Shown here: positions 2,824-31,110 of the stretch, piece after piece
How positions within the stretch are numbered: position 1 is the stretch's first letter
Layout: each line of letters starts with the position of its first letter
Source of the DNA: a virus
Virus record (IMG/VR): IMGVR_UViG_3300046557_000516
Span: 2,332-66,331 of that record
Strand: one strand, 5' to 3'
Length of the DNA stretch: 64,000 nt
Made by a program: the position numbers and the translations under genes
Notes under the pieces: model-generated
What the model was told of the DNA's origin: nothing
Database searches by the model: none
What the model saw: only the letters and a program-made list of their open reading frames with translations

Positions 2824-3114
2824 TTATATCCCCATGGCCCTTTCGATGGCCTGTTTCCTGATGATGGCCCATGACTTATCGAGGAGCCTGGCGAGCCTGG
2901 CCGCTTCGATCCGCTTCTTAGACCCGGCCGGGAATTCCCAAAACGCGGTCTTGCCGAAGCGTTTGATGTAGCGGCGCAAAAGCATGCTATCGCGCCGCCG
3001 CATGTATTTGGGGACAAGCGGCCAATGGCGGCCGCAGATCCATTCTGTTCCGCCTTGTGTCAGCGTCTTCGTCCGCCGGCAATGCGGGACGCAGCATGGG
3101 GTCCGATCCGTCAT
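2824..3114 (-). CDS. Putative Zn-binding hypothetical protein
   Basis: CCVPHC...WICGRHW; 4-nt overlap with the upstream gene. Confidence 0.6.
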   Translation of the reverse strand: MTDRTPCCVPHCRRTKTLTQGGTEWICGRHWPLVPKYMRRRDSMLLRRYIKRFGKTAFWEFPAGSKKRIEAARLARLLDKSWAIIRKQAIERAMGI

Positions 3115-4668: not shown

Positions 4669-4966
4669 GCAGGGATTTGATGCGCGGTAGGGAGATCACC
4701 ATGTTGAGCTGGCGCATCCCGACGAACCGTTCGCGCTCCATGGTGACCTTGTCGATCGTTTCCGTCGGTCTGGCTCGACGATTGTCTTCCCGGCCGGCGT
4801 TGGTATCCCTGCGGTTCCCCTCAAAGATCCGGCCGCGGGCGGAGGCGACGACGTCGCGCCCCACGCCCAATTCCTTGGCGATCTGGCCGGTGCTCTTGCC
4901 GGCGTCGAAATGCGTTCGGATCAAACCGTCCGTTGGTAGCGGATCTGATTTCGTCCTCTTCGTCAT
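4637..4966 (-). CDS. HTH-containing hypothetical protein
   Basis: GKSTGQIAKELGVGRDVV. Confidence 0.6.
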   Translation of the reverse strand: MTKRTKSDPLPTDGLIRTHFDAGKSTGQIAKELGVGRDVVASARGRIFEGNRRDTNAGREDNRRARPTETIDKVTMERERFVGMRQLNMVISLPRIKSLHGEFKDTSNG

Positions 4967-6207: not shown

Positions 6208-7139
6208 GGGTGAAATCCATCCATTGCTATGGCTTTGACGAGGCGATCGCGTTCGAATTTCTTCATCCGGATCGATTGGTTTTCCCGGGTGTAGACCGCG
6301 ACCCCGGGCCATTCGCCGGTGTCGAGACCATGCCGGATCTTGTGCAGTGCGTAGTTGACGGTGGCGATGCCGATGAGGATGTCTTCCTCATCCATCACCC
6401 TGAAGTCGCTGTCGGCGTAGTCCTTAGACAGCGTGTAAAACAGCGTGAAGGAGTGGAACGGGATCTGCAGCAAGTCGCAAACCATCTTGGTCATCGCCGC
6501 CTGCAGGTAGTAACCCATGTCGCCGATCTGCTTCTCGAGGAAGTCCGGATCCATGGATGATGTCGTCTTCACGTCGCCGAAGTCGCCATCGGCGGCGCGC
6601 ACGTCTGGCCTCGAGCGCAGCCAGATCCCGGTACGTGGGCATCTGGCAAACATCGAGATTTCGACGTCGCCGTTCAACCCGCCGGCCTGGACGAACGGAT
6701 GCTTCGACGCATCATCGGCCATGCGCTTGATCTGCTCGAGCTGTTCCGTCGACAAGGTGACGAGACCGGACTCCGCCATACGCTTGAACCAGTTCTGCCA
6801 GACGCGCTTGTTGCCATGATAGGTCTCGCCTTCGACCTTCTCCGGGATGATGACAAACTTATCCTTGAAGACTTCATCACCCAAAAGGATGGCGTGGACC
6901 GCCTTGCCGAAATCCATCTCGCGCGATGAGGGGCGTTTGATGCGATTTGGGTTGCCGGCGTAATGCTGGAAAAACCGTTTCGGCGTGCCATTGGGCGGCG
7001 CAAGATGCTTGACGCTGGACTTCGAAACAGACGGTCCGGAGAGGAGCGTGGTGTCGTTGTGATAGACCTCGAGCGGGATGCCGCGGTAAAGACCCGGCTT
7101 TGTGATCGTGGTCCCCTCTTCCCAATCTATAATCTCCAA
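6204..7139 (-). CDS. RecE/exonuclease VIII-like PD-(D/E)XK nuclease (DUF3799-like)
   Basis: PGLY.GIP..YH...SKS, FGKAVHA, TGIWLRSRPD...DVKT, GY..QAA. Confidence 0.85.
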   Translation of the reverse strand: MEIIDWEEGTTITKPGLYRGIPLEVYHNDTTLLSGPSVSKSSVKHLAPPNGTPKRFFQHYAGNPNRIKRPSSREMDFGKAVHAILLGDEVFKDKFVIIPEKVEGETYHGNKRVWQNWFKRMAESGLVTLSTEQLEQIKRMADDASKHPFVQAGGLNGDVEISMFARCPRTGIWLRSRPDVRAADGDFGDVKTTSSMDPDFLEKQIGDMGYYLQAAMTKMVCDLLQIPFHSFTLFYTLSKDYADSDFRVMDEEDILIGIATVNYALHKIRHGLDTGEWPGVAVYTRENQSIRMKKFERDRLVKAIAMDGFHP

Positions 7140-9211: not shown

Positions 9212-9501
9212 TCCGGAAACTCCGGAGGCGCATCGAACATCGGCGCCCAGGCGTAGAGGTCTCGGTCGGTTTTGATGCCGGCCCACCATCCCGTTGGGTG
9301 CTGCTTCGTCGGTTCCGTCCGGTACGTCGGGATCCACTTCATCACCCCGGCATCGATGACGGCGCCAAGGATCGGCTCCGCCTTGAACGATGTCGTTGTC
9401 CGCGTGCCACCCTTGCCGTCCGGCCCGGTATGAACCAGCGTCTTGCCTCGAGGCGCGTTCTCGACGTCGTAGCGCCACATGAAAATAACTGTCCTGCTCA
9501 T
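9208..9501 (-). CDS. Hypothetical protein
   Basis: Start trimmed to MSRTVIF; W..D.E.APRG...AWAP. Confidence 0.55.
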   Translation of the reverse strand: MSRTVIFMWRYDVENAPRGKTLVHTGPDGKGGTRTTTSFKAEPILGAVIDAGVMKWIPTYRTEPTKQHPTGWWAGIKTDRDLYAWAPMFDAPPEFPE

Positions 9502-10100
9502 AAGACTATCCATCCTCTTTGAAGGGCGATCGCCACAGCGGCGACCGTATTTCTGACGTTCAGTTTGTTGCGGATCGCCGTGTTCGCATGAACCATCGAG
9601 CTCCCCGATTTCTTCAGGATCCGCCCGATCTCCGCATTGGTATGACCGTGCGCAGACAGAGAAAGGATCTCCTTCTCGATGACGGTAAGCGGAGAGCGCG
9701 ACGACGCGTCGATCCTGTCCATCGCCTTCGCCACCAACTGGATCGCGTCTAGCAGCTCGCTGCCGTTGTCCGTTGTTGTCGGGGTTCGAAACGCGGCCCG
9801 GAGCTGGCGAGCCGATGCGATCAGCGTGAGATCGCCGACCGGCGCGATGCGCTCCATCATGTCGAAATCTTCGGCAAGAGCGTTGGCGCAAGCCTTCCAC
9901 CCGTCACGCCATCCAGCCATGCGGCTTTCCGGTTCATGCTTATGCTTTGGCATATTGGCATAGGACTTGAGGACGTCGCGCCAACCCGTCGGTATCGGAG
10001 GCTTCGTCATATCGGTCTCCTCGTGAAGTGCATCCGATAACAGCCCTTGGCAAATTTCGATGGCTCGAATGGCTCTCTCACCAATGATGTCCCGGTCCAT
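9498..10100 (-). CDS. LuxR-type HTH transcription regulator
   Basis: C-terminal PLT..EKEIL.L.A.G.TN.EIG.IL..S......N..IR.KLNV.N..AAVA.A...G. Confidence 0.8.
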   Translation of the reverse strand: MDRDIIGERAIRAIEICQGLLSDALHEETDMTKPPIPTGWRDVLKSYANMPKHKHEPESRMAGWRDGWKACANALAEDFDMMERIAPVGDLTLIASARQLRAAFRTPTTTDNGSELLDAIQLVAKAMDRIDASSRSPLTVIEKEILSLSAHGHTNAEIGRILKKSGSSMVHANTAIRNKLNVRNTVAAVAIALQRGWIVL

Positions 10101-10200: not shown

Positions 10201-10929
10201 TCATTTCGCGTCGCGCTCGCGGATCCGGCGCTCCAGCTCGGCGATCGCGGCGTCGTCCTTGGCCTTGCTGCCGTCGGAATGATACCAATTGTTGCTCATC
10301 GAAGCGGCGTATTGGAAATATTTGAGGCGCTCCAGTTCTTGCTCGAGCGTCAGCGGAATAGTCGCCGTGACTATGCTACCATCTAGCCGCATGATTGCCA
10401 TTCCAGAGGTTGCCGCCGCATCAAGCCCGATGACTCGCGCCGGCAAACCCATGACATCGGCCATGTGCTTGCGGTTCATCCCCGCCCACTGTTCATAGGA
10501 AAGCACAAGTGGATCGGCAGTCGGAGCGCCAAACAATGCCTCGCCGACCTGGACCGGTCCTGCAGGGTCTCGCTTGGGATTAGGAATGCGTTTGCCGGCG
10601 TTGAGGAGCGCGATACACGCCTTGGCGTATTCTGCGGCGTCATCGTCCACGAAGCCGGAGAACGTGCCTGCGAGCCCTACCCTGACAGCGCCCTTGCGGC
10701 ATGCCTGGAAATAATGGATGCCGGTGACGTAGTCGGTCATGAAGGCGGAGATATGCCGATGAGACAGACCCGGGAATTTCTCGCGGGCATCCTTCAGCAG
10801 ATCTCTCTTGATACCAATTTTCAGGGGACGCTTTGCAAGCCCTGGGGCGACGAAGCAATTCGGATACTCGTGCACCATAGCGGTGCGGAGCTGGTTCATT
10901 TCCAGCTTAGAAACCCGTTTGCGGGACAT
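10201..10929 (-). CDS. ProQ/FinO-domain RNA chaperone
   Basis: YP.CF.....RPLKIGI..DL...Y..G..Y......GAVRV.L.G...G.V...AAEYA FinO-domain signature; GGAG 9 nt upstream of ATG 10929. Confidence 0.85.
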   Translation of the reverse strand: MSRKRVSKLEMNQLRTAMVHEYPNCFVAPGLAKRPLKIGIKRDLLKDAREKFPGLSHRHISAFMTDYVTGIHYFQACRKGAVRVGLAGTFSGFVDDDAAEYAKACIALLNAGKRIPNPKRDPAGPVQVGEALFGAPTADPLVLSYEQWAGMNRKHMADVMGLPARVIGLDAAATSGMAIMRLDGSIVTATIPLTLEQELERLKYFQYAASMSNNWYHSDGSKAKDDAAIAELERRIRERDAK

Positions 10930-10957: not shown

Positions 10958-10996
10958 ATGTATACCTTTCTGATTAGAAAGCGCAATAGGTATACG
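10958..10996 (-). promoter_or_regulatory. Leftward early promoter with two GTATAC operator-like boxes
   Basis: Minus strand TTGCGC-16nt-TATACAT; boxes ATGTATACCTTT 10958-10969 and AGGTATACG 10988-10996. Confidence 0.55.
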
Positions 10997-18692: not shown

Positions 18693-18868
18693 TTCTCTAT
18701 CGCGCGAGCCAAGGCGGGAACCTTGCTCGCGGTCCAGTCCAAGACCTCGAGGACGATAGCCTCGAGGACAGCCTCCGTGATGGTTTGACCCGCGAATTTC
18801 TCCATCAGGTGCTTTGAGATATCGACATCGTCTCGAGCGACAAATTCGAATTCAGTCCGCGCCGTCAA
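18689..18868 (-). CDS. Hypothetical protein (59 aa)
   Basis: Manual translation, TTG start coupled to upstream stop; converges on the rightward operon. Confidence 0.4.
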   Translation of the reverse strand: MTARTEFEFVARDDVDISKHLMEKFAGQTITEAVLEAIVLEVLDWTASKVPALARAIEN

Positions 18869-19131
18869 CGCTGTATTCCCCCCGTTGCTGCGGCCGTAGA
18901 TGCGCCCTTGAGCGCTTCAGCCAAGTCTACGATGTGTTTCCCCATCAGCGTCGCCGCGACGATGCGCGCCTCAGGAGCGATGACTTCGACGATGACGGCA
19001 ACTGCCGTCCGTTCCACCGCTTCAAAAACCTGGAGTATGTCCAGGCTTTGGGCTTTTGCGCCCCGCTTTATCATTGCAAGGATCTCCATCGATAAGCGTT
19101 CGATGCGATCTAAGTCCGTCACTTCCGCCAT
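18865..19131 (-). CDS. Hypothetical protein
   Basis: ORF with GAGG RBS. Confidence 0.6.
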   Translation of the reverse strand: MAEVTDLDRIERLSMEILAMIKRGAKAQSLDILQVFEAVERTAVAVIVEVIAPEARIVAATLMGKHIVDLAEALKGASTAAATGGIQR

Positions 19132-19224
19132 AATTTGGTTCCTCGTTTAATCAACCCAATTGGTATTCGAAATTCTGTCTGATTCGGCGATACTCCTTTC
19201 GGGATTGCAAACGGTTCATAGGGA

Positions 19225-19707
19225 TTAGTTGAGCGACTTCCTGTGAAGGCGTGACTTATTTATCGAGTCGAGCACGAGACCCGCATTGGTGGAAATCATT
19301 CCGACATCCGCCTTGGTCAAACCGAACGCCTCGTAAACGACGGCCATGGCCACCGTCATCGCATAGGCCGCTGTTTGCATAGGAAGCTTTTCGGCCTGGC
19401 AGGCGGAAAGCATCGCGGTCTGGATGAATTCCGACACCTTGTCCTCCGGATCTTTCACCATCTCCTGCGCCGGCCCGGTCTGTGCTTTGAGGTTCTTGTG
19501 CATGTCGTAGGCAAAATCGAGCAGGCTATCGATCTTGTAGCGCGGATCGACCCCCCTGAGGATCATGACGTTAACCAAGCTCTGCGCGACGACTGACAGC
19601 ACGGCGGGCGACATCGATTGCTTGCTGGCGTCGTGGACGATGATGGTTGCGAGTTTCTCGAGCAGGACTTTCGCCTGGATCTTTTCGCGGTCTGTTAGTT
19701 CGGTCAT
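19225..19707 (-). CDS. Hypothetical protein
   Basis: ORF with RBS. Confidence 0.65.
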   Translation of the reverse strand: MTELTDREKIQAKVLLEKLATIIVHDASKQSMSPAVLSVVAQSLVNVMILRGVDPRYKIDSLLDFAYDMHKNLKAQTGPAQEMVKDPEDKVSEFIQTAMLSACQAEKLPMQTAAYAMTVAMAVVYEAFGLTKADVGMISTNAGLVLDSINKSRLHRKSLN

Positions 19708-19718
19708 TTGATTTCCCT

Positions 19719-21134
19719 TCAGTGAATTGCGATTGCGATGAGAACGACGGACACGGCGAGCGCGACGACGCCCTGAAGCATCTTGGTCCGGCCGATACGC
19801 CGACGCGCGTCCCTGGCCTCCTGTGGCGGCGCAGAAGGGCTAACGACATACTTTGCGAAGTCGCCCTCCATCCAGGCGCCGGTCGGCTCGAGAATTGGCA
19901 AACCGCGCTCCGCCCGCATGCGGTTGTCGAATTGCTTCGCCGCTTCACCTTCCGTGGCCGAATAGGTGTACTTGACACGGAGCGATGAACCCAGGTTGAC
20001 GATCTCGCGCTCGAGCGTGGAAAGCGGCCCGATCTGTCCAGCCGGCAATTCCACCTTGACGCGCTCCACCTTCGTCGGGACGCCGTCGGCCTCGATCACG
20101 GAAATGAAGGCTTCACCGATCCCAAGCGTGGTGACTTCCTTGACGTCGACTCCGCGGTTCGGCCGGAACGATTTGATGGTTGCCTTGACCATGGTCTGAT
20201 CGCGCGGGGTATAGACGCGCAAGGCGTGCTGGATCTTGGAGCCCAACTGCGCGAGGACGGTATCGGGAACGTCGGCCACGGATTGGGTGACGAAGATGAC
20301 GCCAACGCCCTTCGACCGAACCAGGCGCACGAGACGCTCGATCTGCTGGATCAACGGCTTCGGGCTATCCGTAAACAGCAGATGCGCTTCATCGAAGACA
20401 AAGACGATCTTCGGCTGCGATAGATCGCCGACCTCAGGCAATTTCCGGAAGAGCTCGGTTAGCAGCCATAGCAGGAACGTCGCGTAAAGCTTCGGCGCCT
20501 CGATCAGCTTGTCGGCATGCAAAAGGTTGACGACGCCCTTCATTACGCCGCCTTCGAAGTCGAGTTGCCCGCGCAACAAATCCAGGATGTCGAACGGCGG
20601 CTCGCCGAATAACATCTCGCCGCCTTGTGACTCGAGCGTCATCAAATTGCGCTGGATCGCATTGATCGAAGAGCCGGTCACATTGCCGTATTTGTGCGAG
20701 ATCTCATCCCGGTTGTCGATCATGTCGACAAGGACGTAGCGCAGATCGTCCAGGGTGAGCATGAAGTCTTTTTCGTCCTCGGCTTTCCTGAAGGCGATCG
20801 CCAGCGTTCCCGCCTGGGTCTCGTTAAGCCGCAGCATCGATGACAGCAGTTCGGATCCCATCGCCTGGACAGATGTGCGGATTGGCAAGCCGTGAACCCC
20901 GAAGAGATCCCAAAATTGCGTTGGCGCCTTGGTTGCGATGCCGGAGAGATCGGACTTCACGTCGGAAGCGAAAACCGGAATGCCGTTGGCGGAGCATTGC
21001 TCCATGATGCGCTGCAAAGTCACCGTCTTGCCGCCGCCGGTGGAGCCGGTCACGAGCATGTGTCTGTTTAGGCGGGACAACGGGAGCGAGATGAGGCGGC
21101 CGTCGGCGGTCTTACCAATATCGATGTGCGTCAT
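19719..21134 (-). CDS. HerA/FtsK-like ATPase (DUF853 family)
   Basis: NRH.LVTG.TG.GKTVTLQ; FVFDEAHLLF; VRLVRSKGVG..FVTQ; QHALR.YTP. Confidence 0.88.
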   Translation of the reverse strand: MTHIDIGKTADGRLISLPLSRLNRHMLVTGSTGGGKTVTLQRIMEQCSANGIPVFASDVKSDLSGIATKAPTQFWDLFGVHGLPIRTSVQAMGSELLSSMLRLNETQAGTLAIAFRKAEDEKDFMLTLDDLRYVLVDMIDNRDEISHKYGNVTGSSINAIQRNLMTLESQGGEMLFGEPPFDILDLLRGQLDFEGGVMKGVVNLLHADKLIEAPKLYATFLLWLLTELFRKLPEVGDLSQPKIVFVFDEAHLLFTDSPKPLIQQIERLVRLVRSKGVGVIFVTQSVADVPDTVLAQLGSKIQHALRVYTPRDQTMVKATIKSFRPNRGVDVKEVTTLGIGEAFISVIEADGVPTKVERVKVELPAGQIGPLSTLEREIVNLGSSLRVKYTYSATEGEAAKQFDNRMRAERGLPILEPTGAWMEGDFAKYVVSPSAPPQEARDARRRIGRTKMLQGVVALAVSVVLIAIAIH

Positions 21135-21283
21135 TCTCTGATCTCCAGTTGCTTAAGGGCCTTGATGTAGCGCCGCGCTCCGGCCGCCAGTTTCTGGTAG
21201 CGTTTGATGTCCGCGATGTGTTCAGCAAGCTCGATTTTTGCCTTTGCGATGGCGTCGTCGATTTCTTTCCGCTCGTGCTTCAT
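21131..21283 (-). CDS. Hypothetical protein (50 aa)
   Basis: Manual translation MKHERKEIDDA...; ATGA overlaps on both sides. Confidence 0.5.
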   Translation of the reverse strand: MKHERKEIDDAIAKAKIELAEHIADIKRYQKLAAGARRYIKALKQLEIRE

Positions 21284-21459
21284 GATTTCCAGATCTCCAA
21301 TCCCTTTGCGTAGGCGTAGCGCTTCAATCCGTTGATTTGCCTCATCTCCTCATCAATGGCCCGCTGTATCCGCTTAATTTCCCGCAAGCCGAAGGCGAGC
21401 CGATACTGCGCCGTGACGAGGCTAGCGTTGAATTCCAGTTCCTCTTCAGCCTTGCTCAT
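21280..21459 (-). CDS. Hypothetical protein
   Basis: Start trimmed to MSKAEEE; ATGA overlap. Confidence 0.5.
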   Translation of the reverse strand: MSKAEEELEFNASLVTAQYRLAFGLREIKRIQRAIDEEMRQINGLKRYAYAKGLEIWKS

Positions 21460-21773
21460 TCGACGTCCTCCAGGTGATCGTCCGGAGCGCGCTCCAGGTA
21501 CGGGAATTCGACCCCAGGCAATTGCTTGTCGGAAACGATGCGTTCCGCCGCCTCCTGGCGGGCATTGATAATCATCGACGGATTGCCGGTGAAAATCGCC
21601 AGCACGATGGGAACCCAATACGGAATGTTATCTTCCCCATCGATCCAATTGTGGATGCGCTTCGGTTCGAACCCAAAGATCCGTGCAAAGGCATTGGGAA
21701 CCATGCCGATCTGATCCAGCGCCCGGGCGAATTCCGGCCCCGTCAGTCGGACGTATTCAAATCTGCGGCTCAT
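21456..21773 (-). CDS. XRE-like HTH protein
   Basis: LT..EF..AL..IG.....FAR.FG.....I.NW..G...IP.WV. Confidence 0.65.
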   Translation of the reverse strand: MSRRFEYVRLTGPEFARALDQIGMVPNAFARIFGFEPKRIHNWIDGEDNIPYWVPIVLAIFTGNPSMIINARQEAAERIVSDKQLPGVEFPYLERAPDDHLEDVE

Positions 21774-21973
21774 GTCTTCCTCCTGGGGATGGATTTGATC
21801 GTCTTGACGACGAAAGCCTCCGGAGATTTACGCGTCGGCCAATTGTCCGCCACATAGGTATCCGTGTAGAATTCGCCGTGGATATTGTTCCGGATCTCCT
21901 TCAGCGCGTATTCGCGGCTGCAATTGCGATCGAACCGGACCTTGATCGAGAATTCGTGCGTCTTACTCTGCAT
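21770..21973 (-). CDS. Hypothetical protein
   Basis: Coupled ORF. Confidence 0.55.
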   Translation of the reverse strand: MQSKTHEFSIKVRFDRNCSREYALKEIRNNIHGEFYTDTYVADNWPTRKSPEAFVVKTIKSIPRRKT

Positions 21974-22325
21974 TGTCAGCGTACTCCCGGATCTCGCGCG
22001 TGACCTGGCCCAATTCGATCACGGCATTGGATGCCAGCCAAATCAGGATGTCGCGGATTGCATCGATGTCGCACGAGATCTCGCGCAATTCTGTTTTCAT
22101 GACCTCGACGCCATCGAGGCGATAGCGCTCCGCCAGAATTGCTTTCGCATCCTCGACAGCGTGGTAATGCCTCATCCCGCCGTTTGACAGATAGATAGAC
22201 TGTCCCTCCGCCCTGCGGACGTTGGGAATGTTGCGAGCGTGTTTCGAGTCCTTCAAGCGCTCCTGGAGATGCGCGACTTGCTGGAGGAATTGCTCCAGCG
22301 TGGAATTAGGCTTTCGTTCAAACAT
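21963..22325 (-). CDS. Hypothetical protein
   Basis: Start trimmed to MFERKP after an AAGG RBS. Confidence 0.6.
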   Translation of the reverse strand: MFERKPNSTLEQFLQQVAHLQERLKDSKHARNIPNVRRAEGQSIYLSNGGMRHYHAVEDAKAILAERYRLDGVEVMKTELREISCDIDAIRDILIWLASNAVIELGQVTREIREYADNAE

Positions 22326-22543
22326 GGCATTGCCTTTCGTAATTGATCCCACGATTGGGATATGTGGGCGGAGCGTTACTGAAGCGCTCCGCCGCTGATG
22401 TGGTTGCCCGATAGGCTCGCGTTAGAGCATGACGGCATTCTCCTCCTGTTTACTCGCCAGCGCGATCTAGTCCGCAGCACTGGCAATCCGTGGCGCGGCG
22501 CCTCTATGAGCGCGACGGGGTAACGTCGCGCCTTAGAAGAGCC

Positions 22544-22747
22544 CTAGGAAAGGGCGGCTAGCGCACGGCGGAAATCATCCTTGGTAAGCTCCTTCCAGCC
22601 TACTACCTTTCCGTCCACGCGCACCTCCTGTCGATGCACGACATTGCCGTCGCGTAATGAGGTGTACTCGACACATGGCGCGATATCAGCAAACGGCTTC
22701 AGCGCCGCCCGCAGCATATCCAATTCCTTCTGATTATCCTCGTTCAT
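22544..22747 (-). CDS. Hypothetical protein
   Basis: MNEDNQ...LRAALKPFA...LT.DDFRRA; AAGGA RBS. Confidence 0.6.
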   Translation of the reverse strand: MNEDNQKELDMLRAALKPFADIAPCVEYTSLRDGNVVHRQEVRVDGKVVGWKELTKDDFRRALAALS

Positions 22748-22808
22748 GCCTGAATTCCTTTTGACCTGAGGGGATGAGGCGGAGCGAATTGCCGCTCCGC
22801 CAATTGGA

Positions 22809-23984
22809 CTAGACGCGCATTGGCATAAGAACCGCAGTCCAGCCGTCGCGGCCGTAGATGCGAGACGGTGAGCCGGCATCGCGGAAACCAATCCGCAGCT
22901 CGCCGCCGCCATGCGTGGCAATGGCTTCCAGGACGTAGCGGCCGTTGAAACCAATTTCGAATTCGTCACCGCTCCAATGTGCAGGGATATCGGCGGAGGC
23001 CGAACCGTTGTCCGGATTGTTGCAATGGAGCTTTGACTCCGATTTACCCAACGAAAGCTTGAAAGCGCGTCCCTTGTCGGAAGCGATCAATAGGACAGAC
23101 TTCACCGCTTCAGCCAATTCGTCCGCCTCAAACAAAGCGAAGTCAGCACTGTGGACCATATCCGGAATGGCGCGCTGATAGTCCGGAAACGTGCCGTCGA
23201 TTGTTTTCGCCGTGATAACGACGTCGCCGAATTCGAATTCGAAGGCAAAGCGGATCCTGCGGCTTTTGCTGTCGTCCACCGTCACGGTTACGATACGCGG
23301 CGCGTTCTTGCCCTTTAGGAGCGCCTCCATAAGCTTTACGACACGAGTTGGCACGATGAGGCCAAGCGGCAACGTCGGGAATTCCTCCGGCTTGCCGACG
23401 TTCTGTCGATAAAGCCTATGCCCATCGGTCGCAACGAAGGTCAAAACGTCCGCGATTGTGTGAACAAAGATCCCATTGAGGTAATAGCGCGTTTCCTCGG
23501 TTGAGATCGCGCCAGATGTCTTGTGAAAGGCGTTGTAAAGCGTGGACCCGTCGATATCGAAGGCAACGGAGTCCAGCGCGGGAACGTCCATGACCGGAAA
23601 ATCGGCCGCATCAATTGTCGGCAGACTATAGCGAGCCTTTTCGAATTCGACTTTCAGATATGTCGGATATTGCTCAAGCGCGACACAATAGGCTTTTGGC
23701 GCGTTCTTAAGCAGCTTCAGCACGTTGGACGCTGCGGCCGTTGTGTCGAGTCGCGAGTCAACGGCGGCCGCAATCTTCACCTGAATTTCGATATCCAGGT
23801 TCGTTGCCGTCATCGTGATATGCGAGCCCGAACCCTGAAGGCGGACGTTGTCCAGGACCGGAATTGAGTTGCGCGTCTCAACCGCCTTCGTGACGATCTC
23901 CATAGCGGCCGTAAAGGCGTCGCGCTCGATAACGGCGGAGGGGGCGAGTGTGGCGGAAATGGTTGCTGCGTTTTCCATAGTCAT
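22809..23984 (-). CDS. dnaN: DNA polymerase III beta sliding clamp homologue
   Basis: RNSIPVLDNV, ATNLDI, AISTEETRYYLNGIF, VATDGHRL, IDGTFPDYQR, IGFNGRY, VLMPMRV. Confidence 0.93.
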   Translation of the reverse strand: MTMENAATISATLAPSAVIERDAFTAAMEIVTKAVETRNSIPVLDNVRLQGSGSHITMTATNLDIEIQVKIAAAVDSRLDTTAAASNVLKLLKNAPKAYCVALEQYPTYLKVEFEKARYSLPTIDAADFPVMDVPALDSVAFDIDGSTLYNAFHKTSGAISTEETRYYLNGIFVHTIADVLTFVATDGHRLYRQNVGKPEEFPTLPLGLIVPTRVVKLMEALLKGKNAPRIVTVTVDDSKSRRIRFAFEFEFGDVVITAKTIDGTFPDYQRAIPDMVHSADFALFEADELAEAVKSVLLIASDKGRAFKLSLGKSESKLHCNNPDNGSASADIPAHWSGDEFEIGFNGRYVLEAIATHGGGELRIGFRDAGSPSRIYGRDGWTAVLMPMRV

Positions 23985-24058
23985 GTTCCTTTTGTGATGC
24001 GGTGAACAATTTCACCCATGACGGCCGAACGTGGCGGCCGTCGCGGCTGGAATTGGTT

Positions 24059-24265
24059 TCAGTCTTCCTCATCGTCGCAAGTCTGGATTGACATCTCGCC
24101 GACATTGTTTCCGTTGATGTCGATTAAGTGCCAACTGTTGATATTCCCGTTTTCGAAGTCGTCCGCCAGCTTGCGCAAGATGCGCGCAATTTCGCTAGTT
24201 GGGCTTTCTTCAAAAGCCGCGTTGCTGGTTTCAATGTGAAGCGCGATGCGCTCAAACTTAGCCAT
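24059..24265 (-). CDS. Small phage hypothetical protein
   Basis: IET.NAAFE....EIARILRKLA....D.NGN.VG. Confidence 0.65.
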   Translation of the reverse strand: MAKFERIALHIETSNAAFEESPTSEIARILRKLADDFENGNINSWHLIDINGNNVGEMSIQTCDDEED

Positions 24266-24633
24266 TAGAAAGCACTCCGTTGCGTGGAAAGGGTGATTGC
24301 GTCCTGCAGGATTGCGCACGCCTTGTCTGTATTCTCGCCGATGAGATCTAGCGCGGCTCGCATTGGCGCGAGGATGCCGTCTAGCACTTCGAAGGCGTCG
24401 GCCTCAGAGATATAATCACCCATCGCGCATGCGAGCATGTGGCCGCTGGTATCCGCGTAGTGGCCGTATACCGTCCAAAAGCTTTCGTGCGGTATAGAGG
24501 CGTCGTTCAATTGGCGTTCCACGCGCTCAAACTCCGCCTTGTTGGCGTAGGATGTCAAAGCCGTGGTCTCTACGCCTTCAACGGTTTCCGCGATCTCTAT
24601 GCATGGCCTGATGTGGTAATAGTCAAAGCGCAT
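24265..24633 (-). CDS. Hypothetical protein
   Basis: Coupled ORF, MRFDYY start. Confidence 0.6.
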   Translation of the reverse strand: MRFDYYHIRPCIEIAETVEGVETTALTSYANKAEFERVERQLNDASIPHESFWTVYGHYADTSGHMLACAMGDYISEADAFEVLDGILAPMRAALDLIGENTDKACAILQDAITLSTQRSAF

Positions 24634-25426
24634 TGTCTTCACCCCCATAGATGAAACCGCAAGCGATCATGTCGCTGCGGAATTGCTCGATAAGTCCAGG
24701 AAGGCGCGCGGCAAGCTTTGCCTTCAATTCCTCAGGCGGAGCGCACAATTCCTCGTCTGTCGCCTCGGGCCAAACGGCCGAACTGCGGGCTAAATCAAGC
24801 TGGCGTTCCTTGCCTTCACCCACGCGACACCACGGCCGCCAAACGAGCTGCAAGCCGTCGTCTTCCGGTTGTTCTGCGGAGTCGACCTGTTTCGGGATCT
24901 GATAGAGCGCGATCTCGAAACCATCCTTGTCCAGGGCGACGCGTTCCCATGCCGGCAATTTGGTCTTGCCGTTGACGATTTGGCGACGCTCGCCTTTCAG
25001 CAAGCCGGATGAATCGCGGTTGCTGGCGTGATAGACCGTGTTTGCGAGGTAGTGCATAGGGCCCGCCGTTCCGCACAAATGCCACTTGATGAGCGGAGCA
25101 AACTCCGGAAAGTGTTTGACAATATCGCCATGCGCTGCGCCGCCACCGCTTTCGCGCCAAAATCCGGAGCGCTCCTCATCAATCGAGCAAGTGATGCCGA
25201 AATCATCGTGGCCGTTCTGGCAATTGTCGTCGAAACGGAGCTCAACGCGCATCCGCATCTTGCGGCCGTTTTCATTGTAAAACCGCGTCGCTCCAAACGT
25301 CTGACTTGCAAGCGTGGTCAATTGTCCAGTCCAGCGGATGACGTTGAACATGCGGCCGGCAACGCCGTTGATGACGTGCGAGAATTCCTCGCGCACGATT
25401 TCGGAAGAAAGCTTTAGGCGGTTCAT
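24623..25426 (-). CDS. Phage hypothetical protein
   Basis: RFDD.C.NGH.DF.IT...GG..H..I...FPE..PLIKWHL....GPMHY.AN..YH. Confidence 0.7.
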   Translation of the reverse strand: MNRLKLSSEIVREEFSHVINGVAGRMFNVIRWTGQLTTLASQTFGATRFYNENGRKMRMRVELRFDDNCQNGHDDFGITCSIDEERSGFWRESGGGAAHGDIVKHFPEFAPLIKWHLCGTAGPMHYLANTVYHASNRDSSGLLKGERRQIVNGKTKLPAWERVALDKDGFEIALYQIPKQVDSAEQPEDDGLQLVWRPWCRVGEGKERQLDLARSSAVWPEATDEELCAPPEELKAKLAARLPGLIEQFRSDMIACGFIYGGEDNAL

Positions 25427-25515
25427 TGCAGTTCCCTTTCCAGTTTCGCCACCATTGGCGAGCGTCTTAAGGATGCGCCACGGTTGAGCCGTGGCGACAC
25501 CTTAGAACGCCTTGG

Positions 25516-26409
25516 TTATGCCGCGCGCTTGAACCCCTTCAGGGCGGCCATTTGCTCCGCCATGGCCCAAAGAGCCTTATTCAACTTGATATCGCCATCG
25601 ATGTTTTTCACGGCGCGCATTGCCGGGCGACGGCCGTCGATACGTCCACGCGCGGTCAAATCGCCCTTAATGGCATGTTCTTGGATGACGTTGAATTTCG
25701 TCCACAAGTCCGAACCGCCATCGTCGCGACGGTTCGGCCGCAAGAATTGTTCAGGCTGATAGGCGCGAAACTGTGGCGTTTCCGGTTCGCCTTCAGCCGC
25801 TCCGAAACGGTACTCGTGTGCAGCGGCCGCCATAATCATTTGCTCGTCACGGTCTAGCGTGATCTGTCCCCAATCCTGAGGCGCGGCTAGCAGCAACTCG
25901 GCTGACTTCAGGACTTCATATGTCCCTTCAATCACCTTGCCCTGTATGGCCTCCGCCGTGCCAGTGTGACGAACCTTGACGGAGTCGACAGTCGAGATTT
26001 GCGACACAAGCGAGTTTGTGCAGCGAATGCGGAACATGCCGCCCATCAAGTCATATGCGGCGGTTCCATCGTTCGCGTTCTTGAGTAGGATTTCAAAAAC
26101 CGAATCGCCGACACTGAATTTCTGATCCTGATCCAAGCGACGGAAGCGGAGCATATGCTTTGTGAAGTCGCGGCGGGTTTCGTCGCGTGTGCCGCCCTGT
26201 TTCGCGCCAACTGGCGAAAAGCCTTCGGACTGAAGAGCGCGAACGATCTCGATTGTTGGGATAGGCTGGAAACGATCGCTGCGGCTATCGTGCTTTTCAA
26301 CCGCAAAGATCGAAGGCGCAACTTTGCGCATTTCATCCTCAGTCAAAGCGCGTGCGCTTCCGTCAAAACGAGCGGTCTGATTGGCATAGATAGGATGCAT
26401 GTAAGACAT
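25516..26409 (-). CDS. DUF932/DUF945 family protein
   Basis: APSIFA...H.SRS.RF..IPT; EGF.PV; FTKHMLRFR; EI.L.N.NDG; G.FR..C.N; DLW..FNVIQE; N.ALW. Confidence 0.9.
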   Translation of the reverse strand: MSYMHPIYANQTARFDGSARALTEDEMRKVAPSIFAVEKHDSRSDRFQPIPTIEIVRALQSEGFSPVGAKQGGTRDETRRDFTKHMLRFRRLDQDQKFSVGDSVFEILLKNANDGTAAYDLMGGMFRIRCTNSLVSQISTVDSVKVRHTGTAEAIQGKVIEGTYEVLKSAELLLAAPQDWGQITLDRDEQMIMAAAAHEYRFGAAEGEPETPQFRAYQPEQFLRPNRRDDGGSDLWTKFNVIQEHAIKGDLTARGRIDGRRPAMRAVKNIDGDIKLNKALWAMAEQMAALKGFKRAA

Positions 26410-26542
26410 GGTCTTTCCTTCATAATCGGCGAAATTGCCGGATTAGTGCAGCGCAAAGAAAGAAACGCGACGCTGCATTAACGCAAGAAATTTCGTGCCG
26501 TCGGAAATTTTCCGGCTGGCAATTGTTTTTAGACCCCTGAAA

Positions 26543-26914
26543 CTAGGGGGTGGCGGCCGCCGTTTTCTCGCCGAAACCGTGGAAACCCGCCGTTTTCGCG
26601 CTTTCGCCCATAGAACCCCGTACGACGCGTTGCGCGCTTTCAGCCACGGTAGCCGCGCTTTCCTCAGAGATCGCGCCCTTGACGCCCTCCGGCCGCTTTA
26701 CGCGCTCCGTTCGGCACGTTGCCACAACTCCGGAGATGCGAGCCGCTTCGATGGCGTCGACACAATCTTGCATGGTCAAGCCATGGTCTGAAATGTCGGA
26801 CTCCGAACCGTGGAACGTGATGAGCTCATAGCGCGCACCTGGAGCGGCCGGAGCTGCCAACGCGAACGATGCCGCGAAAGCGAGGGCGCCAATGATGAGG
26901 ACGGGTTTTGACAT
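26543..26914 (-). CDS. Putative secreted protein
   Basis: MSKPVLIIGALAFAASFALA signal-peptide-like N-terminus; two Cys. Confidence 0.55.
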   Translation of the reverse strand: MSKPVLIIGALAFAASFALAAPAAPGARYELITFHGSESDISDHGLTMQDCVDAIEAARISGVVATCRTERVKRPEGVKGAISEESAATVAESAQRVVRGSMGESAKTAGFHGFGEKTAAATP

Positions 26915-26918
26915 GACT

Positions 26919-27062
26919 TCAGCCTTTCGCGACAGAGATGGCGTGCAACCACTTGCCGCCGATGAGAAACACAATCTTGCCGTCGCGGCTCATATGAGAG
27001 ACCACGCCCTCGCGCGTCGCGCCGTAGTTCGAATAGGTGACCTTGTCGCCTTGCTTGAACAT
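26919..27062 (-). CDS. Small SH3/KOW-like protein (47 aa)
   Basis: Manual translation MFKQGDKVTY...GVV...IVFL; AGGAG RBS. Confidence 0.55.
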   Translation of the reverse strand: MFKQGDKVTYSNYGATREGVVSHMSRDGKIVFLIGGKWLHAISVAKG

Positions 27063-27073
27063 GTCGAGCGCTC

Positions 27074-27757
27074 CTAAAACCGAAACTTGATGAGACCTTC
27101 AGCGCCAAAACGCGGATGGTTGCGGAGGCCATGCAAGACCGTGCCACGCTCGCCAATGGCGCGCGCTCGATACCAGTCCAGCGCCAAGGCGTCTTTCCAC
27201 TTGCGGCCATACTCCGCCGCATAGGACTTCAGCGCGTCGTATGCCTCCGGAGGCGTATACGGCAACGTCGCGTTCAACTCCGCTACCGCAGCGTCGCAAT
27301 CCGACTGAAGAGCGCTAGCGGCTTTAATAACCACTACGTCCGCGCTTTTGTAGCCTTGCGAGCCGTCGATATAGTCGCGACGCTCCGCAACCACTAGGGA
27401 CTTGATGAAGTCGCCGAACTGGACAGAGAAGCGGTTTTCGTCTCGTGTCGCCAAAAGGTAATAAGCCGGTTCGCGCGCTGGCAACGGTTCAACCGGAGCG
27501 GCGGGAATGTTGCCCGTAACGAGCGGTCCCCATACAAGGTTAAAGACCGATGGGAAATACTCCGTGCTTTGTTCGTTTTCGTCATGGTCCGCCGTCATAA
27601 CCCATACGCGGTTATGCCCGTTGTTCGGCCAGCCGCTCACAACAAAGGACTCGCCACGAAATGACGTGACCGCGTCGCCAGCGGAAACCGGGCGGCCGTC
27701 GGCATGATACAACTGCGGAGTTTCGGCGGAGATGCGATGTGCGAAGGCGTTGGACAT
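27074..27757 (-). CDS. Multidomain hypothetical protein
   Basis: Start MSNAFAH after AAAGGA; C-terminal AL..YA..YGR.WK..L..DW......L..LRN. Confidence 0.65.
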   Translation of the reverse strand: MSNAFAHRISAETPQLYHADGRPVSAGDAVTSFRGESFVVSGWPNNGHNRVWVMTADHDENEQSTEYFPSVFNLVWGPLVTGNIPAAPVEPLPAREPAYYLLATRDENRFSVQFGDFIKSLVVAERRDYIDGSQGYKSADVVVIKAASALQSDCDAAVAELNATLPYTPPEAYDALKSYAAEYGRKWKDALALDWYRARAIGERGTVLHGLRNHPRFGAEGLIKFRF

Positions 27758-27827
27758 GGCTTGCTTTCCTTTGTTGCGAGCGGTTGAGGATGCGCCAGCG
27801 CTGCGGCTGGCGACACCTAAGCCGTTC

Positions 27828-28088
27828 CTACTGCAACCATGCGCTTTCCGCCCACGCTGCAACGTCAAGCCGCGAACCGTCCTTGAATATGAACGTGCAA
27901 CCGGTCAAATACTCCATCTCGCTTTCTGCGATCTCGTGTTTCCACTCCGCACGCATGGCGCTTTCGACTTCGTAGACATGCAAGCGGTCACTGCGCTCCG
28001 CAAGGATAGGCGTGAACTGCGCCAGCTCCGCAATGGTGACGGCCGAGTTGAAAATGTCGCCTGAGTTGTCGATAGAAATGCGGGCCAT
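27828..28088 (-). CDS. Hypothetical protein
   Basis: Start MARISID after AAAGGAG. Confidence 0.6.
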   Translation of the reverse strand: MARISIDNSGDIFNSAVTIAELAQFTPILAERSDRLHVYEVESAMRAEWKHEIAESEMEYLTGCTFIFKDGSRLDVAAWAESAWLQ

Positions 28089-28169
28089 GGGGTTCGCTCC
28101 TTTGTTGCGATGGAAACGGGTTCGTTTCAGATGCGCGGCCATGACGCGGCCGCGACACTGAAGCGCGCC

Positions 28170-28439
28170 TTAGTTCTGAGTTGCTTCGTTCTCGCCGAAA
28201 AAGGCAATGTTGGCGTAAAGGGTGTTGAGCTCCGCCCCGATCCCTTGCGCCTTGAAACGCGAGCCGTCCTTGATGCCTTCCGGAGCTGCGCCCTTGCATG
28301 CGGCGGCCAAATGTTCGGAGAGATGCGCCTTGGATGCGCAAACCGCCTTGAACTGCGAAGGCAAGTCAGCGGCCGGAGCTGCAACGGCGGAGAAGGCGGA
28401 AAGAGCGACGAAAGCGGATGAGATGAGAAGAGCGCGCAT
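28170..28439 (-). CDS. Putative secreted protein
   Basis: MRALLISSAFVALSAFSAVAAPA signal-peptide-like N-terminus; two Cys. Confidence 0.6.
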   Translation of the reverse strand: MRALLISSAFVALSAFSAVAAPAADLPSQFKAVCASKAHLSEHLAAACKGAAPEGIKDGSRFKAQGIGAELNTLYANIAFFGENEATQN

Positions 28440-28510
28440 AGCAGATGTTTCCTTTTCCAGTTTGGCACAATCGCCAGATAAGCCGCGCGTCACTGCGGCT
28501 TGCCAAGCGA

Positions 28511-28714
28511 CTATGCATACAAAGGGTTAAAACCGTCTAAAGACCGGACGAGGGCGGCCATAGCAGCACGCTCGACAAGGCGAGCGGTGCGCGCACGGTC
28601 TGTCACTGGCGACGACACGTAGAACGAACCGCCGACGCGGCCGACGCGCCAATGGATGAGACCGCCGACTTGCTGGACAGAGACGTTCAAGAAAGACTGA
28701 AGGAAGGAGAGCAT
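28511..28714 (-). CDS. Hypothetical protein, first gene of the leftward operon
   Basis: GAAAGG RBS; follows promoter. Confidence 0.55.
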   Translation of the reverse strand: MLSFLQSFLNVSVQQVGGLIHWRVGRVGGSFYVSSPVTDRARTARLVERAAMAALVRSLDGFNPLYA

Positions 28715-28754
28715 GGGAGAGACCTTTCAAACCAGACTCACAAGCGAGCCGTTG

Positions 28755-28814
28755 AATGGAAATGTATACCTTTTTGCGGGAATGCCAAGGGGGTGAAGTG
28801 ACAAAATGTATAGG
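28755..28814 (-). promoter_or_regulatory. Leftward promoter overlapping an AAAAAGGTATACATT operator-like box
   Basis: Minus strand TTGGCA-16nt-TACATT; 15-bp identity with 11653-11667. Confidence 0.6.
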
Positions 28815-28953
28815 TCTATGCACTCCGGCGAAAAGAGTAATGAAATCAAGCGAAATGCGACGGCCGACTTTTCCGATACATGATGCCGGAAAGACCACGA
28901 AACGCGCCCTTGGCCCGCTATGGGCGAAACAACGCCTATCCCTGATAAAGCGA

Positions 28954-29049
28954 CGCTCGCCGACTGGACAGACGAGACCGCGCTCGCCGACACCACTTGC
29001 TGCGCTCCAATACTCCGGCAATACGCCAACGTGGATGTCGCTCGCCGAC
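28954..29049 (+). repeat. Three direct 11-mers CGCTCGCCGAC
   Basis: Copies at 28954, 28981, 29039 in non-coding DNA. Confidence 0.75.
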
Positions 29050-29399
29050 TCGGCCGTCACGGATAACAGGAAACGAATAGCCCTATAGGCGTATATGACT
29101 AGGCCACGTGTCCACACGAGCCAATGCACGCTGACTCGCTGCGCCCTTTGACGTCGCCCCGATGAAACGGCAATACGGCATGCACAAACGGATATGATGG
29201 CGACACATGACAAGGGGACAGACAAGCGTTGCGCTTGCGTCGACCTGATCGGCCACGAACCCATATCCACCCTACCCCATAGCCCATATCGGCCATGACC
29301 CATGATGCACGTCGACATGATCTCGTGTCATAGCGCCTCAAGGGCGAGCGTGTGCCGTCGGCGGCCATCAACACCTATGACAGTGCCACGCACGCCGCC

Positions 29400-29520
29400 A
29401 GCGACGCGCTATGGGCACGAAAAGGCGCATTAGGGACCGTTTATCGGGTGCGGGCAGAGCGGAGCGCAGCCTCCCGTTCTGTCGCGCAAATTGAAAAATG
29501 TAAGGGGAGATCATCTCGTA
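29400..29520. other. Candidate cos/packaging-initiation region
   Basis: Long non-coding divergence point upstream of the late genes; GpA terminases use cos ends; compositional switch to A-tracts; exact site not established. Confidence 0.3.
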
Positions 29521-29830
29521 CCCCTGGAAACCCTGGAGAAATCGATGCCTTGCATGTGGTTTGGCGGATTTTCCGATGGCGGCCGCTTCAAGGCTTGGCA
29601 ACTCCATTATCAGGCAAAAGGCGCCTCGAGATGGAAGGCGACCGATCTCGCCTGGAAGAAATGCCAGAACAAAACGACCTGGCCTCCCGGGTTGCAAAAC
29701 GGTTGTAAAGCCGCCGCGGCGTAATACGAAAATGGCACCCATCCACCGGGCGGATACAACGTGTTTTTTGGCGATGTCCTTGAAAACGTTCGATCCGCTA
29801 TCAGGACGTGTATGTCGCTCGGAGCTCGAA

Positions 29831-30004
29831 ATGGCCGGAAAGACAAAAACCTACGGCGTATACGCTTGGATCGAAGGCGTGATCGCGAAAATCGGCGAGG
29901 TCCGCGGCCGGGATTGCACGATCGCCTTCAATGCGGCAAAAGCCAAACTGAAGCGGGACGATCTTTGGGTTAAGCCCCTGATGAAGGTCTACGCCAAAAA
30001 CTAA
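29831..30004 (+). CDS. Hypothetical protein (57 aa)
   Basis: GGAG RBS, MAGKTKTYGVY. Confidence 0.5.
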   Translation: MAGKTKTYGVYAWIEGVIAKIGEVRGRDCTIAFNAAKAKLKRDDLWVKPLMKVYAKN

Positions 30005-30007
30005 TGC

Positions 30008-30201
30008 GCTCTCGAGGCCGTCACCTCGATTGAGCCTTCCCCGCTTCCGGAAGCAAAACCGGTCGCCGCGCAAGAGGGTGGATGTAGTTGCCACTCGGGG
30101 AGCCAAAAATACCCGCAGAGGAGACGCCGCGAGGGAAATGCCTCGCCGGATTCGTTAGGTCCGGCAAAACAGCGGCCCACTTGCCCCAGGCCCAAATGGG
30201 C
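30008..30201 (+). ncRNA. Putative structured RNA or leader
   Basis: Series of hairpins and a three-way junction in 215 nt of intergenic DNA. Confidence 0.35.
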
Positions 30202-30219
30202 TAATCTCAGGAGAAACCC

Positions 30220-31110
30220 ATGACCACCTCAGTAATCGTCAATGCTGGCCACGGCTGGCCCGTCGACCTCGTCTTCAAGGATCCGAAGACTGGCGACATC
30301 CTCTCGACGCAGCGCATCGATGTCGACGGCAACCAGACGATCTACGTTCACCGCGGAGCCGACGTCCTCATCCATGAAGTCCAGCCGGAAGAAATGGCTG
30401 CTGTGAGCTACGATGACGAAGCCTCTGCCGCCGCCGATCTCGCCGATGCGCAGAAGGTATCGGAAATCACCGGAGATCCCATCCCGGATCCGCTGATCGA
30501 CCAGGTTGTCAAGATCGACCCGGAAACGAACCAGATCGTCGATGAAACCTCGCCGGTTGCTGCTGTTGTCGCCGCCACTCCGGCCGCTGATGCCGCTCCG
30601 GCCGCCGTCGACACCCCTGTTGCCGTCCCCGTTGTCACCGATGGCGTCATTACCGCTGTCGAGGTCACGAACCCTGGCGCTCTTGTCGCTACGGATGACG
30701 TGCACGTTGCTGATTCTGCTGAAGAAACGCCTGCAGTAGTCGAAGCCCCGGTTGAGCCGGCTCCGGCCGCTGTTGTGGCCGAAACCCCGGCGGAAACCCC
30801 TGTTGAGGCCGCTGTCGTCGAAACTGCCCCGGTCGCTGCTGAAGTAGCCCCGGTTGCCGTCGAAGCTGCTCCGATCGAAGAAGTGTCCGTCGAAACGGCT
30901 CCTGTCGTCCAGGAAGTCGTAGAAACCCCGGCACCTGAAGAAATCCCGGCCGCCGTTGTCGAGGCGCCGGTAGAAGTTGCGGCTGAAGTGGCTGTCCCTG
31001 AAGTGGTCGAGGCTCCGGTTGAAACGCCGGTTGCCGAAACGATGTCTGATCCGGCTTTCGGCACGGACCCTGTCGACGAAGAAGCCCCAAAGCTTGACCA
31101 GCAGTCCTAA
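30220..31110 (+). CDS. Acidic low-complexity (A/V/E/P) repeat protein
   Basis: AGGAG RBS; repeated VVEAPVE/ETPA units; strong codon bias. Confidence 0.8.
   Translation: MTTSVIVNAGHGWPVDLVFKDPKTGDILSTQRIDVDGNQTIYVHRGADVLIHEVQPEEMAAVSYDDEASAAADLADAQKVSEITGDPIPDPLIDQVVKIDPETNQIVDETSPVAAVVAATPAADAAPAAVDTPVAVPVVTDGVITAVEVTNPGALVATDDVHVADSAEETPAVVEAPVEPAPAAVVAETPAETPVEAAVVETAPVAAEVAPVAVEAAPIEEVSVETAPVVQEVVETPAPEEIPAAVVEAPVEVAAEVAVPEVVEAPVETPVAETMSDPAFGTDPVDEEAPKLDQQS

Follow-up and report, generated by a model that had tools for sequence, protein, structure and literature searches.

The units most similar to those considered here have been described from two groups of phages. In T4-type phages the promoter-early stem-loops (PeSLs) consist of a stop codon, a stem-loop and a Shine-Dalgarno sequence with a start codon; they lie among ORFans and bound insertions and deletions (PMC2839356, PMC4122927), and they contain a strong sigma-70 promoter (PMC2839356). 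In Cluster K mycobacteriophages the start-associated sequences (SAS) are conserved leaders that include the ribosome site, and in around half of the cases imperfect inverted repeats with a variable spacer come before them (extended SAS, ESAS); they are restricted to non-structural genes, their consensus differs among sub-lineages and their function is not established (PMC3203893). Here we describe a set of intergenic hairpin-and-leader units in a soil tailed phage of 66 kb (IMG/VR record IMGVR_UViG_3300046557_000516; 66,331 bp, with direct terminal repeats and an estimated completeness of 100%). Bases 2332-66331 of the record were analysed, and this stretch of 64,000 nucleotides (nt), numbered from its own first base, is called the window throughout. 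The nearest described systems are the PeSLs and the SAS/ESAS, and by analogy the RNase III sites of phage T7 would also seem close.

In the window 13 co-directional genes (A to M, from our own scoring of open reading frames, ORFs) run leftward on the minus strand from 28714 down to 21963, and their layout suggests that they probably form a polycistronic early operon. All eight spacers of at least 61 nt in this array (IG1 to IG8, 61-218 nt) have, when read as mRNA, the same order of parts: a stop codon, a hairpin, an AAAGGA-type ribosome site and an ATG (Table 1). The spacer hairpins are GC-rich and imperfect, with the base of the stem 0-5 nt past the stop codon. In a close relative the ORFs have been replaced and the hairpin-plus-leader spacers retained. 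We put it at slightly better than an even chance that these units act as punctuation of the RNA, in which a stabilising or processing hairpin at the 3' end of one message is combined with a hairpin at the 5' end of the next and a leader, and that they double as homology linkers for the exchange of modules. That the units are strictly tied to stop codons and leaders and confined to one operon points to a role in gene expression and not in replication or packaging.

Within the common layout the parts differ from spacer to spacer. The conserved A-rich Shine-Dalgarno leaders include two families with two copies each (79% and 89% identity), and the AAAGGA core alone is common to both; leader and hairpin types are combined in different ways, since IG1 has the leader of IG5 together with another hairpin. 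A second class of hairpin, absent from the original prediction made from this sequence, has a 6-bp stem and a 4-nt loop and is found 16-24 nt upstream of four start codons, the sense loops in these four array spacers being AACC, AUGG, AUUG and AUCG. The window holds 19 small hairpins of this kind, five of which are noncoding, and four of the five are those in array spacers. The fifth (6 bp, loop AAUC, 10966-10981) lies 36 nt before the start at 10929, which belongs to the first gene of another leftward operon.

As far as the form of the array is concerned, the original prediction has held up well. It placed hairpins 0-5 nt after the stop codons at 22544, 24059, 25516, 27828, 28170 and 28511, as the extended stems bear out; the stem GGCGGAGCG/CGCTCCGCC that it assigned to two hairpins was found at 22367-22393 and 22778-22801; and the repeated leaders, two of each, were recovered at 27752-27779 and 28083-28110, and at 25432-25449 and 28449-28466. 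It was also correct that the hairpins have no U tract, for the post-stop hairpins of the sense strand are all missing from the terminator-like sites and the tails after their stems contain no U runs. A possible micro-ORF of 20 codons in IG8 (22376-22438, minus strand) lies behind an AGGAGG site and has its stop within the loop of the GGCGGAGCG hairpin at 22367-22393; if this ORF is real then that hairpin is also stop-associated.

Table 1. Positions in the window of the array genes, spacers, replaced modules and other features discussed in the text
Feature	Position	Strand	Description
Promoter candidate	28761-28788	minus	sigma-70-like, TTGGCA-16-TACATT; 9/12 consensus matches; consensus match only
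Gene A	28511-28714	minus	
IG1	28440-28510	minus	imperfect hairpin 28469-28512 from stop codon, perfect core 28480-28501; 5-bp small hairpin, loop AUUG; type 2 leader (AAACUGGAAAAGGAAAC)
Gene B	28170-28439	minus	
IG2	28089-28169	minus	UGU/CAU staggered-bulge hairpin 28121-28167, core 28134-28154; small hairpin 28113-28128 (loop AACC); type 1 leader (UCGCAACAAAGGA)
Gene C	27828-28088	minus	flanked by IG2 and IG3
IG3	27758-27827	minus	UGU/CAU staggered-bulge hairpin 27779-27826, core 27793-27812; type 1 leader
Gene D	27074-27757	minus	
Gene E	26919-27062	minus	
Gene F	26543-26914	minus	
IG4	26410-26542	minus	133 nt; at least two hairpins, including perfect core 26488-26510
Gene G	25516-26409	minus	DUF932 (PF06067)
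IG5	25427-25515	minus	UGU/CAU staggered-bulge hairpin 25462-25510, core 25476-25496; small hairpin 25446-25461 (loop AUGG); type 2 leader
Gene H	24623-25426	minus	
Gene I	24265-24648	minus	
Gene J	24059-24265	minus	
IG6	23985-24058	minus	hairpin core 24020-24042, imperfect extension 24003-24061; small hairpin 24001-24016 (loop AUUG)
Gene K	22809-23984	minus	sliding-clamp-like
IG7	22748-22808	minus	9-bp hairpin GGCGGAGCG/CGCUCCGCC at 22778-22801
Gene L	22544-22747	minus	
IG8	22326-22543	minus	218 nt; hairpin core 22510-22531 directly past stop; further imperfect hairpin, ~10 pairs, within 22441-22492; GGCGGAGCG hairpin 22367-22393; small hairpin 22346-22361 (loop AUCG)
Gene M	21963-22325	minus	
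Replaced module (gene D, first codons of E)	27051-27762	minus	joints 27050 and 27763; 712 nt here, 573 nt in X3 record 17
Replaced module (genes H, I, J)	24060-25431	minus	joints 24059 and 25432; 1,372 nt here, ~1,497 nt in X3 record 17
Replaced module (IG7 leader, gene L)	22547-22771	minus	joints 22546 and 22772; 225 nt here, 519 nt in X3 record 17
PDDEXK/DUF3799 nuclease	6204-7139	minus	PF12684, E 9.3e-10
RecT-like annealing protein	4963-6207	minus	phrog_561, E 6.2e-17

Three of the spacers, IG2, IG3 and IG5, carry a hairpin with staggered bulges, which in the mRNA sense consists of an outer stem, UG, a bulged U, an inner stem of the form CGC...GCG, CA, a second bulged U and the return of the outer stem. 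The proposed shared core GATGCG...CGACAC is indeed present on the plus strand, at 25472-25500, 27789-27816 and 28130-28158, and, as was also proposed, pairing is kept whilst the inner stems differ: RNAalifold gives 18 pairs, nine of which are changed on both sides (compensatory) across the three hairpins. A pattern for the core has four matches where 0.78 are expected, the fourth, at 26735, being intragenic and not a hairpin; a tighter pattern run over the whole record has three forward matches, none in reverse and none in the control. The unpaired or mismatched positions, C6, U14, U38 and A44, are invariant, C6 and A44 making up a C-A mismatch. The three spacers align from stop codon to ATG with 55-63% identity and are paralogous units over their whole length, and gene C is flanked by IG2 and IG3 as diverged direct repeats (63% identity).

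On the searches made, this staggered-bulge motif is private to the phage. An 18-base pattern matched 59 stretches in IMG/VR, none of which forms the hairpin, and a descriptor, scanned against 2,372,598 bases from the window and the collected loci, gave four matches, comprising the three known copies and one within an open frame of locus L180. The original prediction had looked to a covariance model for wider occurrence; the model built here, R1, found no further copy, its best matches being 16.1 bits (E 0.039, 2964-3005) apart from the motif itself in the window and 20 bits (E 0.041) in 100 loci (956,585 bases). The 2964-3005 match is on the minus strand at the edge of a noncoding gap (2986-3110) in another leftward operon. 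With blastn the 7-kb region gave only short coding matches to phages (67-75% identity), IG5 gave only matches with E = 0.2 to phages, in Pseudomonas phage genes, and 27758-28172 gave no match to plasmids.

The invariance of the four positions whilst the stems covary, in a motif private to this phage, would suit an arrangement in which the three UGU/CAU hairpins are sites for a specific phage or host protein, such as a translational repressor, an antiterminator or a dedicated endoribonuclease, which recognises the bulges and the C-A mismatch. We consider this distinctly unlikely. There are three copies only, the other five spacers have the same layout without the motif and no candidate RNA-binding protein was identified; furthermore the bulges may be invariant through shared descent, because IG2, IG3 and IG5 are paralogous over the whole spacer.

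Perfect inverted repeats (stem of at least 7, loop of 3-9) number 34 in the window, against 28-49 in 10 Markov-1 simulations. It is their position that stands out, as all nine of the noncoding ones lie within the array spacers, which make up 797 of the 5,678 noncoding nt of the window (a Poisson estimate made by hand gives ~1e-9 at 0.42 expected). Folding z-scores for whole spacers are all negative and individually modest in the RNA sense, ranging from -0.70 to -4.52 over nine segments with IG5 at -4.52, and on the DNA plus strand they range from -1.36 to -5.69. In a scan for local minima of free energy (at or below -19 kcal/mol) 36 of 396 peaks were noncoding, which is no enrichment given that 8.9% of the DNA is noncoding. 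As clean stems are enriched whilst energy peaks are not, and the z-scores are modest, the signal resides in the clean stems and not in bulk folding energy.

An intrinsic terminator has a GC-rich hairpin and a U tract directly after the stem; the spacer hairpins have the first and not the second, which makes canonical termination unlikely. Terminator-like sites in the region number 16, against 17.0 +/- 4.2 in shuffled sequence. Terminators without U have reportedly been found in the early region of an actinophage. The hairpins could be leaky or factor-dependent terminators or attenuators that grade expression down the early operon, as has been proposed for the stem-loops of PeSLs, one of which reduced lacZ expression in the manner of a strong terminator (PMC2839356), and the position of GC-rich hairpins directly after stop codons is in keeping with this. 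However, we hold it to be unlikely, given that a U tract is missing after every hairpin whilst the same phage does have a canonical U-tract terminator (minus strand 11104->11055), that mycobacterial RNA polymerase is described as requiring a U tract (PMC3993855), and that replication genes, namely the clamp-like gene K and the HerA-like helicase, lie downstream of at least seven such hairpins. The canonical terminator, an 11-bp stem followed by UUUUUCUUUUC, sits between divergently oriented genes and precedes the leftward gene 10201-10929, where it could mark the end of a small RNA or be a leader attenuator.

The early-gene RNase III sites of T7 are imperfect hairpins of ~20 bp with internal loops or bulges, found between the cistrons of the early polycistronic transcript. 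The bulged hairpins have this general shape, with 18 pairs, two single-base bulges and one mismatch, between the cistrons of a putative transcript, and the match in length and bulges makes the 3' hairpin a possible site of the RNase III type. In both cases there are intercistronic imperfect hairpins with shared sequence features, and the upstream message would keep the hairpin at its 3' end. The likeness is one of shape, and there is no match to an Rfam family: over 19000-30500 at E <= 1 the only match was to a fragment of a group II intron inside the clamp-like gene (20.6 bits against a gathering score of 49), which is taken as chance. A processing signal of the RNase III kind is plausible by analogy. 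No RNase III encoded by the phage was found in the record.

Intercistronic hairpins that block decay are familiar from puf and from repetitive extragenic palindromic (REP) sequences. In the RNA punctuation that we favour, the long hairpin after the stop codon would block 3'-to-5' exonucleases on the mRNA, would be cut by a double-strand RNase of the host (RNase III-like), or both, and the small hairpin would shield the 5' end newly formed on the cistron that follows. In this way every gene would obtain its own signals for stability and translation, independent of its neighbours. Both principles, the stabilising 3' hairpin and the protective 5' structure, have been shown for bacterial operons (PMC5927463), where segmental stability of the mRNA likewise comes from a stable stem-loop behind one cistron together with a hairpin where the next one starts. 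Such structures are often in coding regions and occur singly in an operon, whereas in the present operon nearly every gene border carries a member of a repeated, paralogous set.

The second part of this reading concerns the replacement of genes. Four metagenome runs, labelled as rhizosphere, contain the region, and one of them, X1, may be where this DNA came from. Joints between shared and replaced sequence were taken from contigs aligned at 80% likeness, mostly from one contig (X3 record 17) with two X4 contigs for one module. X3 record 17, a contig of 67.8 kb, runs collinear with the window, and the blocks that the two share have 86-97% identity. Three modules of the array are replaced in it (Table 1), a patch at 24278-24426 being retained within the H-I-J module, and the X4 contigs end at both joints of the gene D module. 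The joints at 22546 and 24059 lie at stop codons and those at 25432 and 27763 lie ~5 nt before an ATG, at or in the repeated leaders; the joint at 22772 is 5 nt past a hairpin, and that at 27050 falls within the next ORF, 12 nt from its start, at a border that has no spacer. Inside the array five of the eight joint ends are in or at the edge of a spacer. When the X3 joint ends within 20000-30500 are taken together (n=16), five are at array spacers, two in other noncoding DNA and five inside genes, and the remainder lie within 7 nt of hairpin-less gene junctions (two) or within 13 nt of an ORF end (two).

The idea of a cassette-like exchangeable array thus stands in so far as three modules are replaced in X3 record 17 with the spacers kept, and fails in so far as the hairpins do not travel with the ORFs. 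In the same way the expectation that breakpoints in relatives would map to hairpins fits the five array joint ends in or at spacers and not those at hairpin-less junctions or inside genes. The hairpin as a structure-defined recombination signal is not supported, since the joints fall at a stop codon or ~5 nt before an ATG and at no fixed point of the hairpin. With no fixed joint, no tyrosine recombinase and joints where there is no hairpin, a structure-specific signal is unlikely, and homologous exchange in conserved linkers fits better. Conserved spacers, repeated in the genome and across related phages, would on our reading be patches of homology for the exchange of ORF modules, probably through ordinary short-homology recombination and not by a site-specific reaction at the hairpin. 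The RecT-like protein and the PDDEXK nuclease encoded by the phage (Table 1) are candidates for the enzymes of this exchange; a DNA methyltransferase and a RuvC-like resolvase are also encoded.

A number of observations weigh against this combined reading. None of the runs recorded as RNA contains 22000-29000, and the transcripts, their ends and their cleavage are all inferred. The joints rest on one long contig, with two X4 contigs for one module, at 80% likeness. Some of them are at gene junctions that lack a hairpin (21127, 21768) and others are inside genes (21529, 21560, 22136, 22274, 24426), the pairs 21127/21529 and 21560/21768 having a short side of 32 letters. Selection by itself would be enough to leave joints at gene borders. 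As to the strand, the invariant C-A mismatch of the mRNA is a T.G wobble on the plus strand, where all three bulged hairpins fold slightly to clearly better as trimmed segments and two of the three do so with 46-nt windows, and a hand tally of the folds gives 13 G.U pairs in the sense orientation against 11 in the antisense. Comparison of the strands by G.U against C-A through simple extension had no informative positions.

The better folding of the plus strand, the wobble pair and the extrahelical bases of imperfect hairpins are what would be cited for hairpins acting on plus-strand DNA as structure-specific signals for recombination or priming, comparable to integron attC sites, to IS200/IS605 elements or to single-strand initiation sites. 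Integron arrays are similarly promoter-less and co-directional, with an imperfect hairpin bearing extrahelical bases after each gene. Here, however, there is no integrase, there are no core sites, ORFs are exchanged without their hairpins and the joints are at no fixed site. A six-frame search of the whole 66,331-bp record found no match to the tyrosine recombinase family PF00589 (14 of 14 control genomes matched), and none of the eight spacers has an ordered pair of core sites on either strand (RYYYAAC...GTTRRRY, the inverse core/core motif). Hairpins, moreover, are retained whilst ORFs change. On these grounds attC membership is rejected, and given the strict tie to stop codons and leaders any such action on DNA is very improbable indeed.

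The spacer layout, as opposed to the bulged motif, extends beyond this phage. Queries with the DUF932 protein in viral, metagenome and genome collections gave best identities of 57-58%, whilst queries with gene D and the clamp-like gene found no relative in viral contigs. The nearest relatives by DUF932 protein are the loci L004 (57% identity) and L011 (51% identity), and both have the order stop, hairpin, AGGAGAGCA leader and ATG, with two hairpin motifs of their own in 2-3 copies. A turnover of ORFs with the spacers kept is seen between L004 and L011 as well: the blocks of homology end at start codons (393, 4470) and stop codons (2004, 2390), and in L011, where the gene upstream is a different one, its stop codon is followed by the conserved hairpin with a TAG of its own. 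The DUF932 gene itself seems to be interrupted in L011 (856-2799, against 1045-2004 in L004), its halves lying ~970 nt apart with an insert that includes a block found upstream of the gene in L004. In a further locus, L014, the hairpin after the DUF932 gene (1056-1110) starts with GGCGGAGCGGCAAT, the same 14 bases in the mRNA sense as the IG7 hairpin at 22778-22801; this could be chance or a shared type of hairpin. The hairpins after the DUF932 genes of sixteen other loci were looked at by eye, without a shuffle control, and are not used as evidence; on this reading those of L022 and L041 are canonical U-tract terminators.

Small, lineage-specific families of hairpins with 2-3 copies each, here and in L004 and L011, and paralogy among spacers that is consistent with duplication at insertion, are also what might be left by palindromes with no function of their own, whether selfish or hitch-hiking intergenic repeats resembling REP sequences or miniature inverted-repeat transposable elements, or by-products of repeated recombinational insertion. 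That explanation seems to us distinctly improbable, as pairing has been maintained through double changes, the hairpins keep the same place between stop and leader, and the layout is shared with relatives whose DUF932 proteins are 51-57% identical.

With the PeSLs as described, the array shares repeated units of stop, stem-loop and Shine-Dalgarno sequence with start codon among small genes without assigned function, and insertions or replacements between close relatives that are bounded by the units, as are five of the eight joint ends in the array, though joints occur elsewhere too; one gene, C, is moreover flanked by two copies of the unit, an arrangement of interest because PeSL systems form mini-circles through exchange between neighbouring units. 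It differs from them in having no sigma-70-like promoter in its spacers or elsewhere inside the array, on a consensus scan of the E. coli type, the one candidate listed in Table 1 being upstream of gene A; the spacers are GC-rich where PeSLs are AT-rich, and the phage, with its lambda-type terminase and portal, is not T4-like. The resemblance to SAS/ESAS is that a leader has imperfect inverted repeats with a variable spacer immediately before it, and only at non-structural genes. However, the single conserved 13-bp motif in 11-19 copies described for the mycobacteriophages is replaced here by two leader families of two copies each, the ESAS arms have a 17-bp sequence consensus where the stems here covary and the bulge flanks alone are fixed, and the host phylum and sequences are unrelated. 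Our literature searches, which were not aimed at excluding one, found no description of such a unit in phages of this kind.

A bolder version of these comparisons, which we regard as doubtful, would make the array a promoter-less counterpart of the PeSLs in an unrelated soil phage with lambda-like packaging. Lineage-specific stop-hairpin-leader linkers would insulate early ORFs on the RNA and also actively drive their turnover. Replication would stall at the palindromes, or single strands would become exposed there to the RecT-like protein; a gene between two linkers, for instance C (27828-28088), would be excised as a circle, and a dedicated factor would read the invariant bulges and the C-A mismatch.

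The shuffling of phage genes in this style is already known and is met here in a new form. Gain and loss of small early genes is usually described merely as mosaicism at gene borders, and many such genes elsewhere serve in host takeover or counter-defence. In this phage, which belongs to a group unrelated to the T4-like and mycobacteriophage cases, the gene border is a recognisable, repeated and structured unit that persists when the genes themselves are exchanged. Should the units insulate expression, as the RNA punctuation reading has it, an incoming ORF would be expressed without signals of its own, which would explain why such arrays tolerate rapid turnover. The units also offer a simple, testable rule for spotting exchangeable gene arrays in uncultured phages.

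Amongst the other contents of the window are genes for a large terminase and portal of lambda type, for helicase and ATPase proteins that are DnaB-like and HerA-like respectively, and for the DUF3799 nuclease. The array region, with its DUF932 and sliding-clamp-like proteins, gave matches to phrog_947 and phrog_12094; in a Pfam scan of 10 array proteins nine had no family and the tenth was DUF932, which lends no support to the anti-defence role raised in the original prediction. A 41-nt direct repeat (73% identity, 26843-26883 and 28368-28408) covers the hydrophobic N-termini of proteins F and B; their paralogy, considered on this account, is unsupported (BLASTP E 0.16). ARAGORN calls a tRNA-Asp of 93 nt with anticodon 'atc' at 18702-18794 on the minus strand, a doubtful call that overlaps called ORFs. 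Finally, the sequence at 9498-10010 on the minus strand weakly matches a family of phage sigma factors (phrog_3282, E 6.7e-06), and if this is real a scan with the sigma-70 consensus would miss later promoters of the phage.

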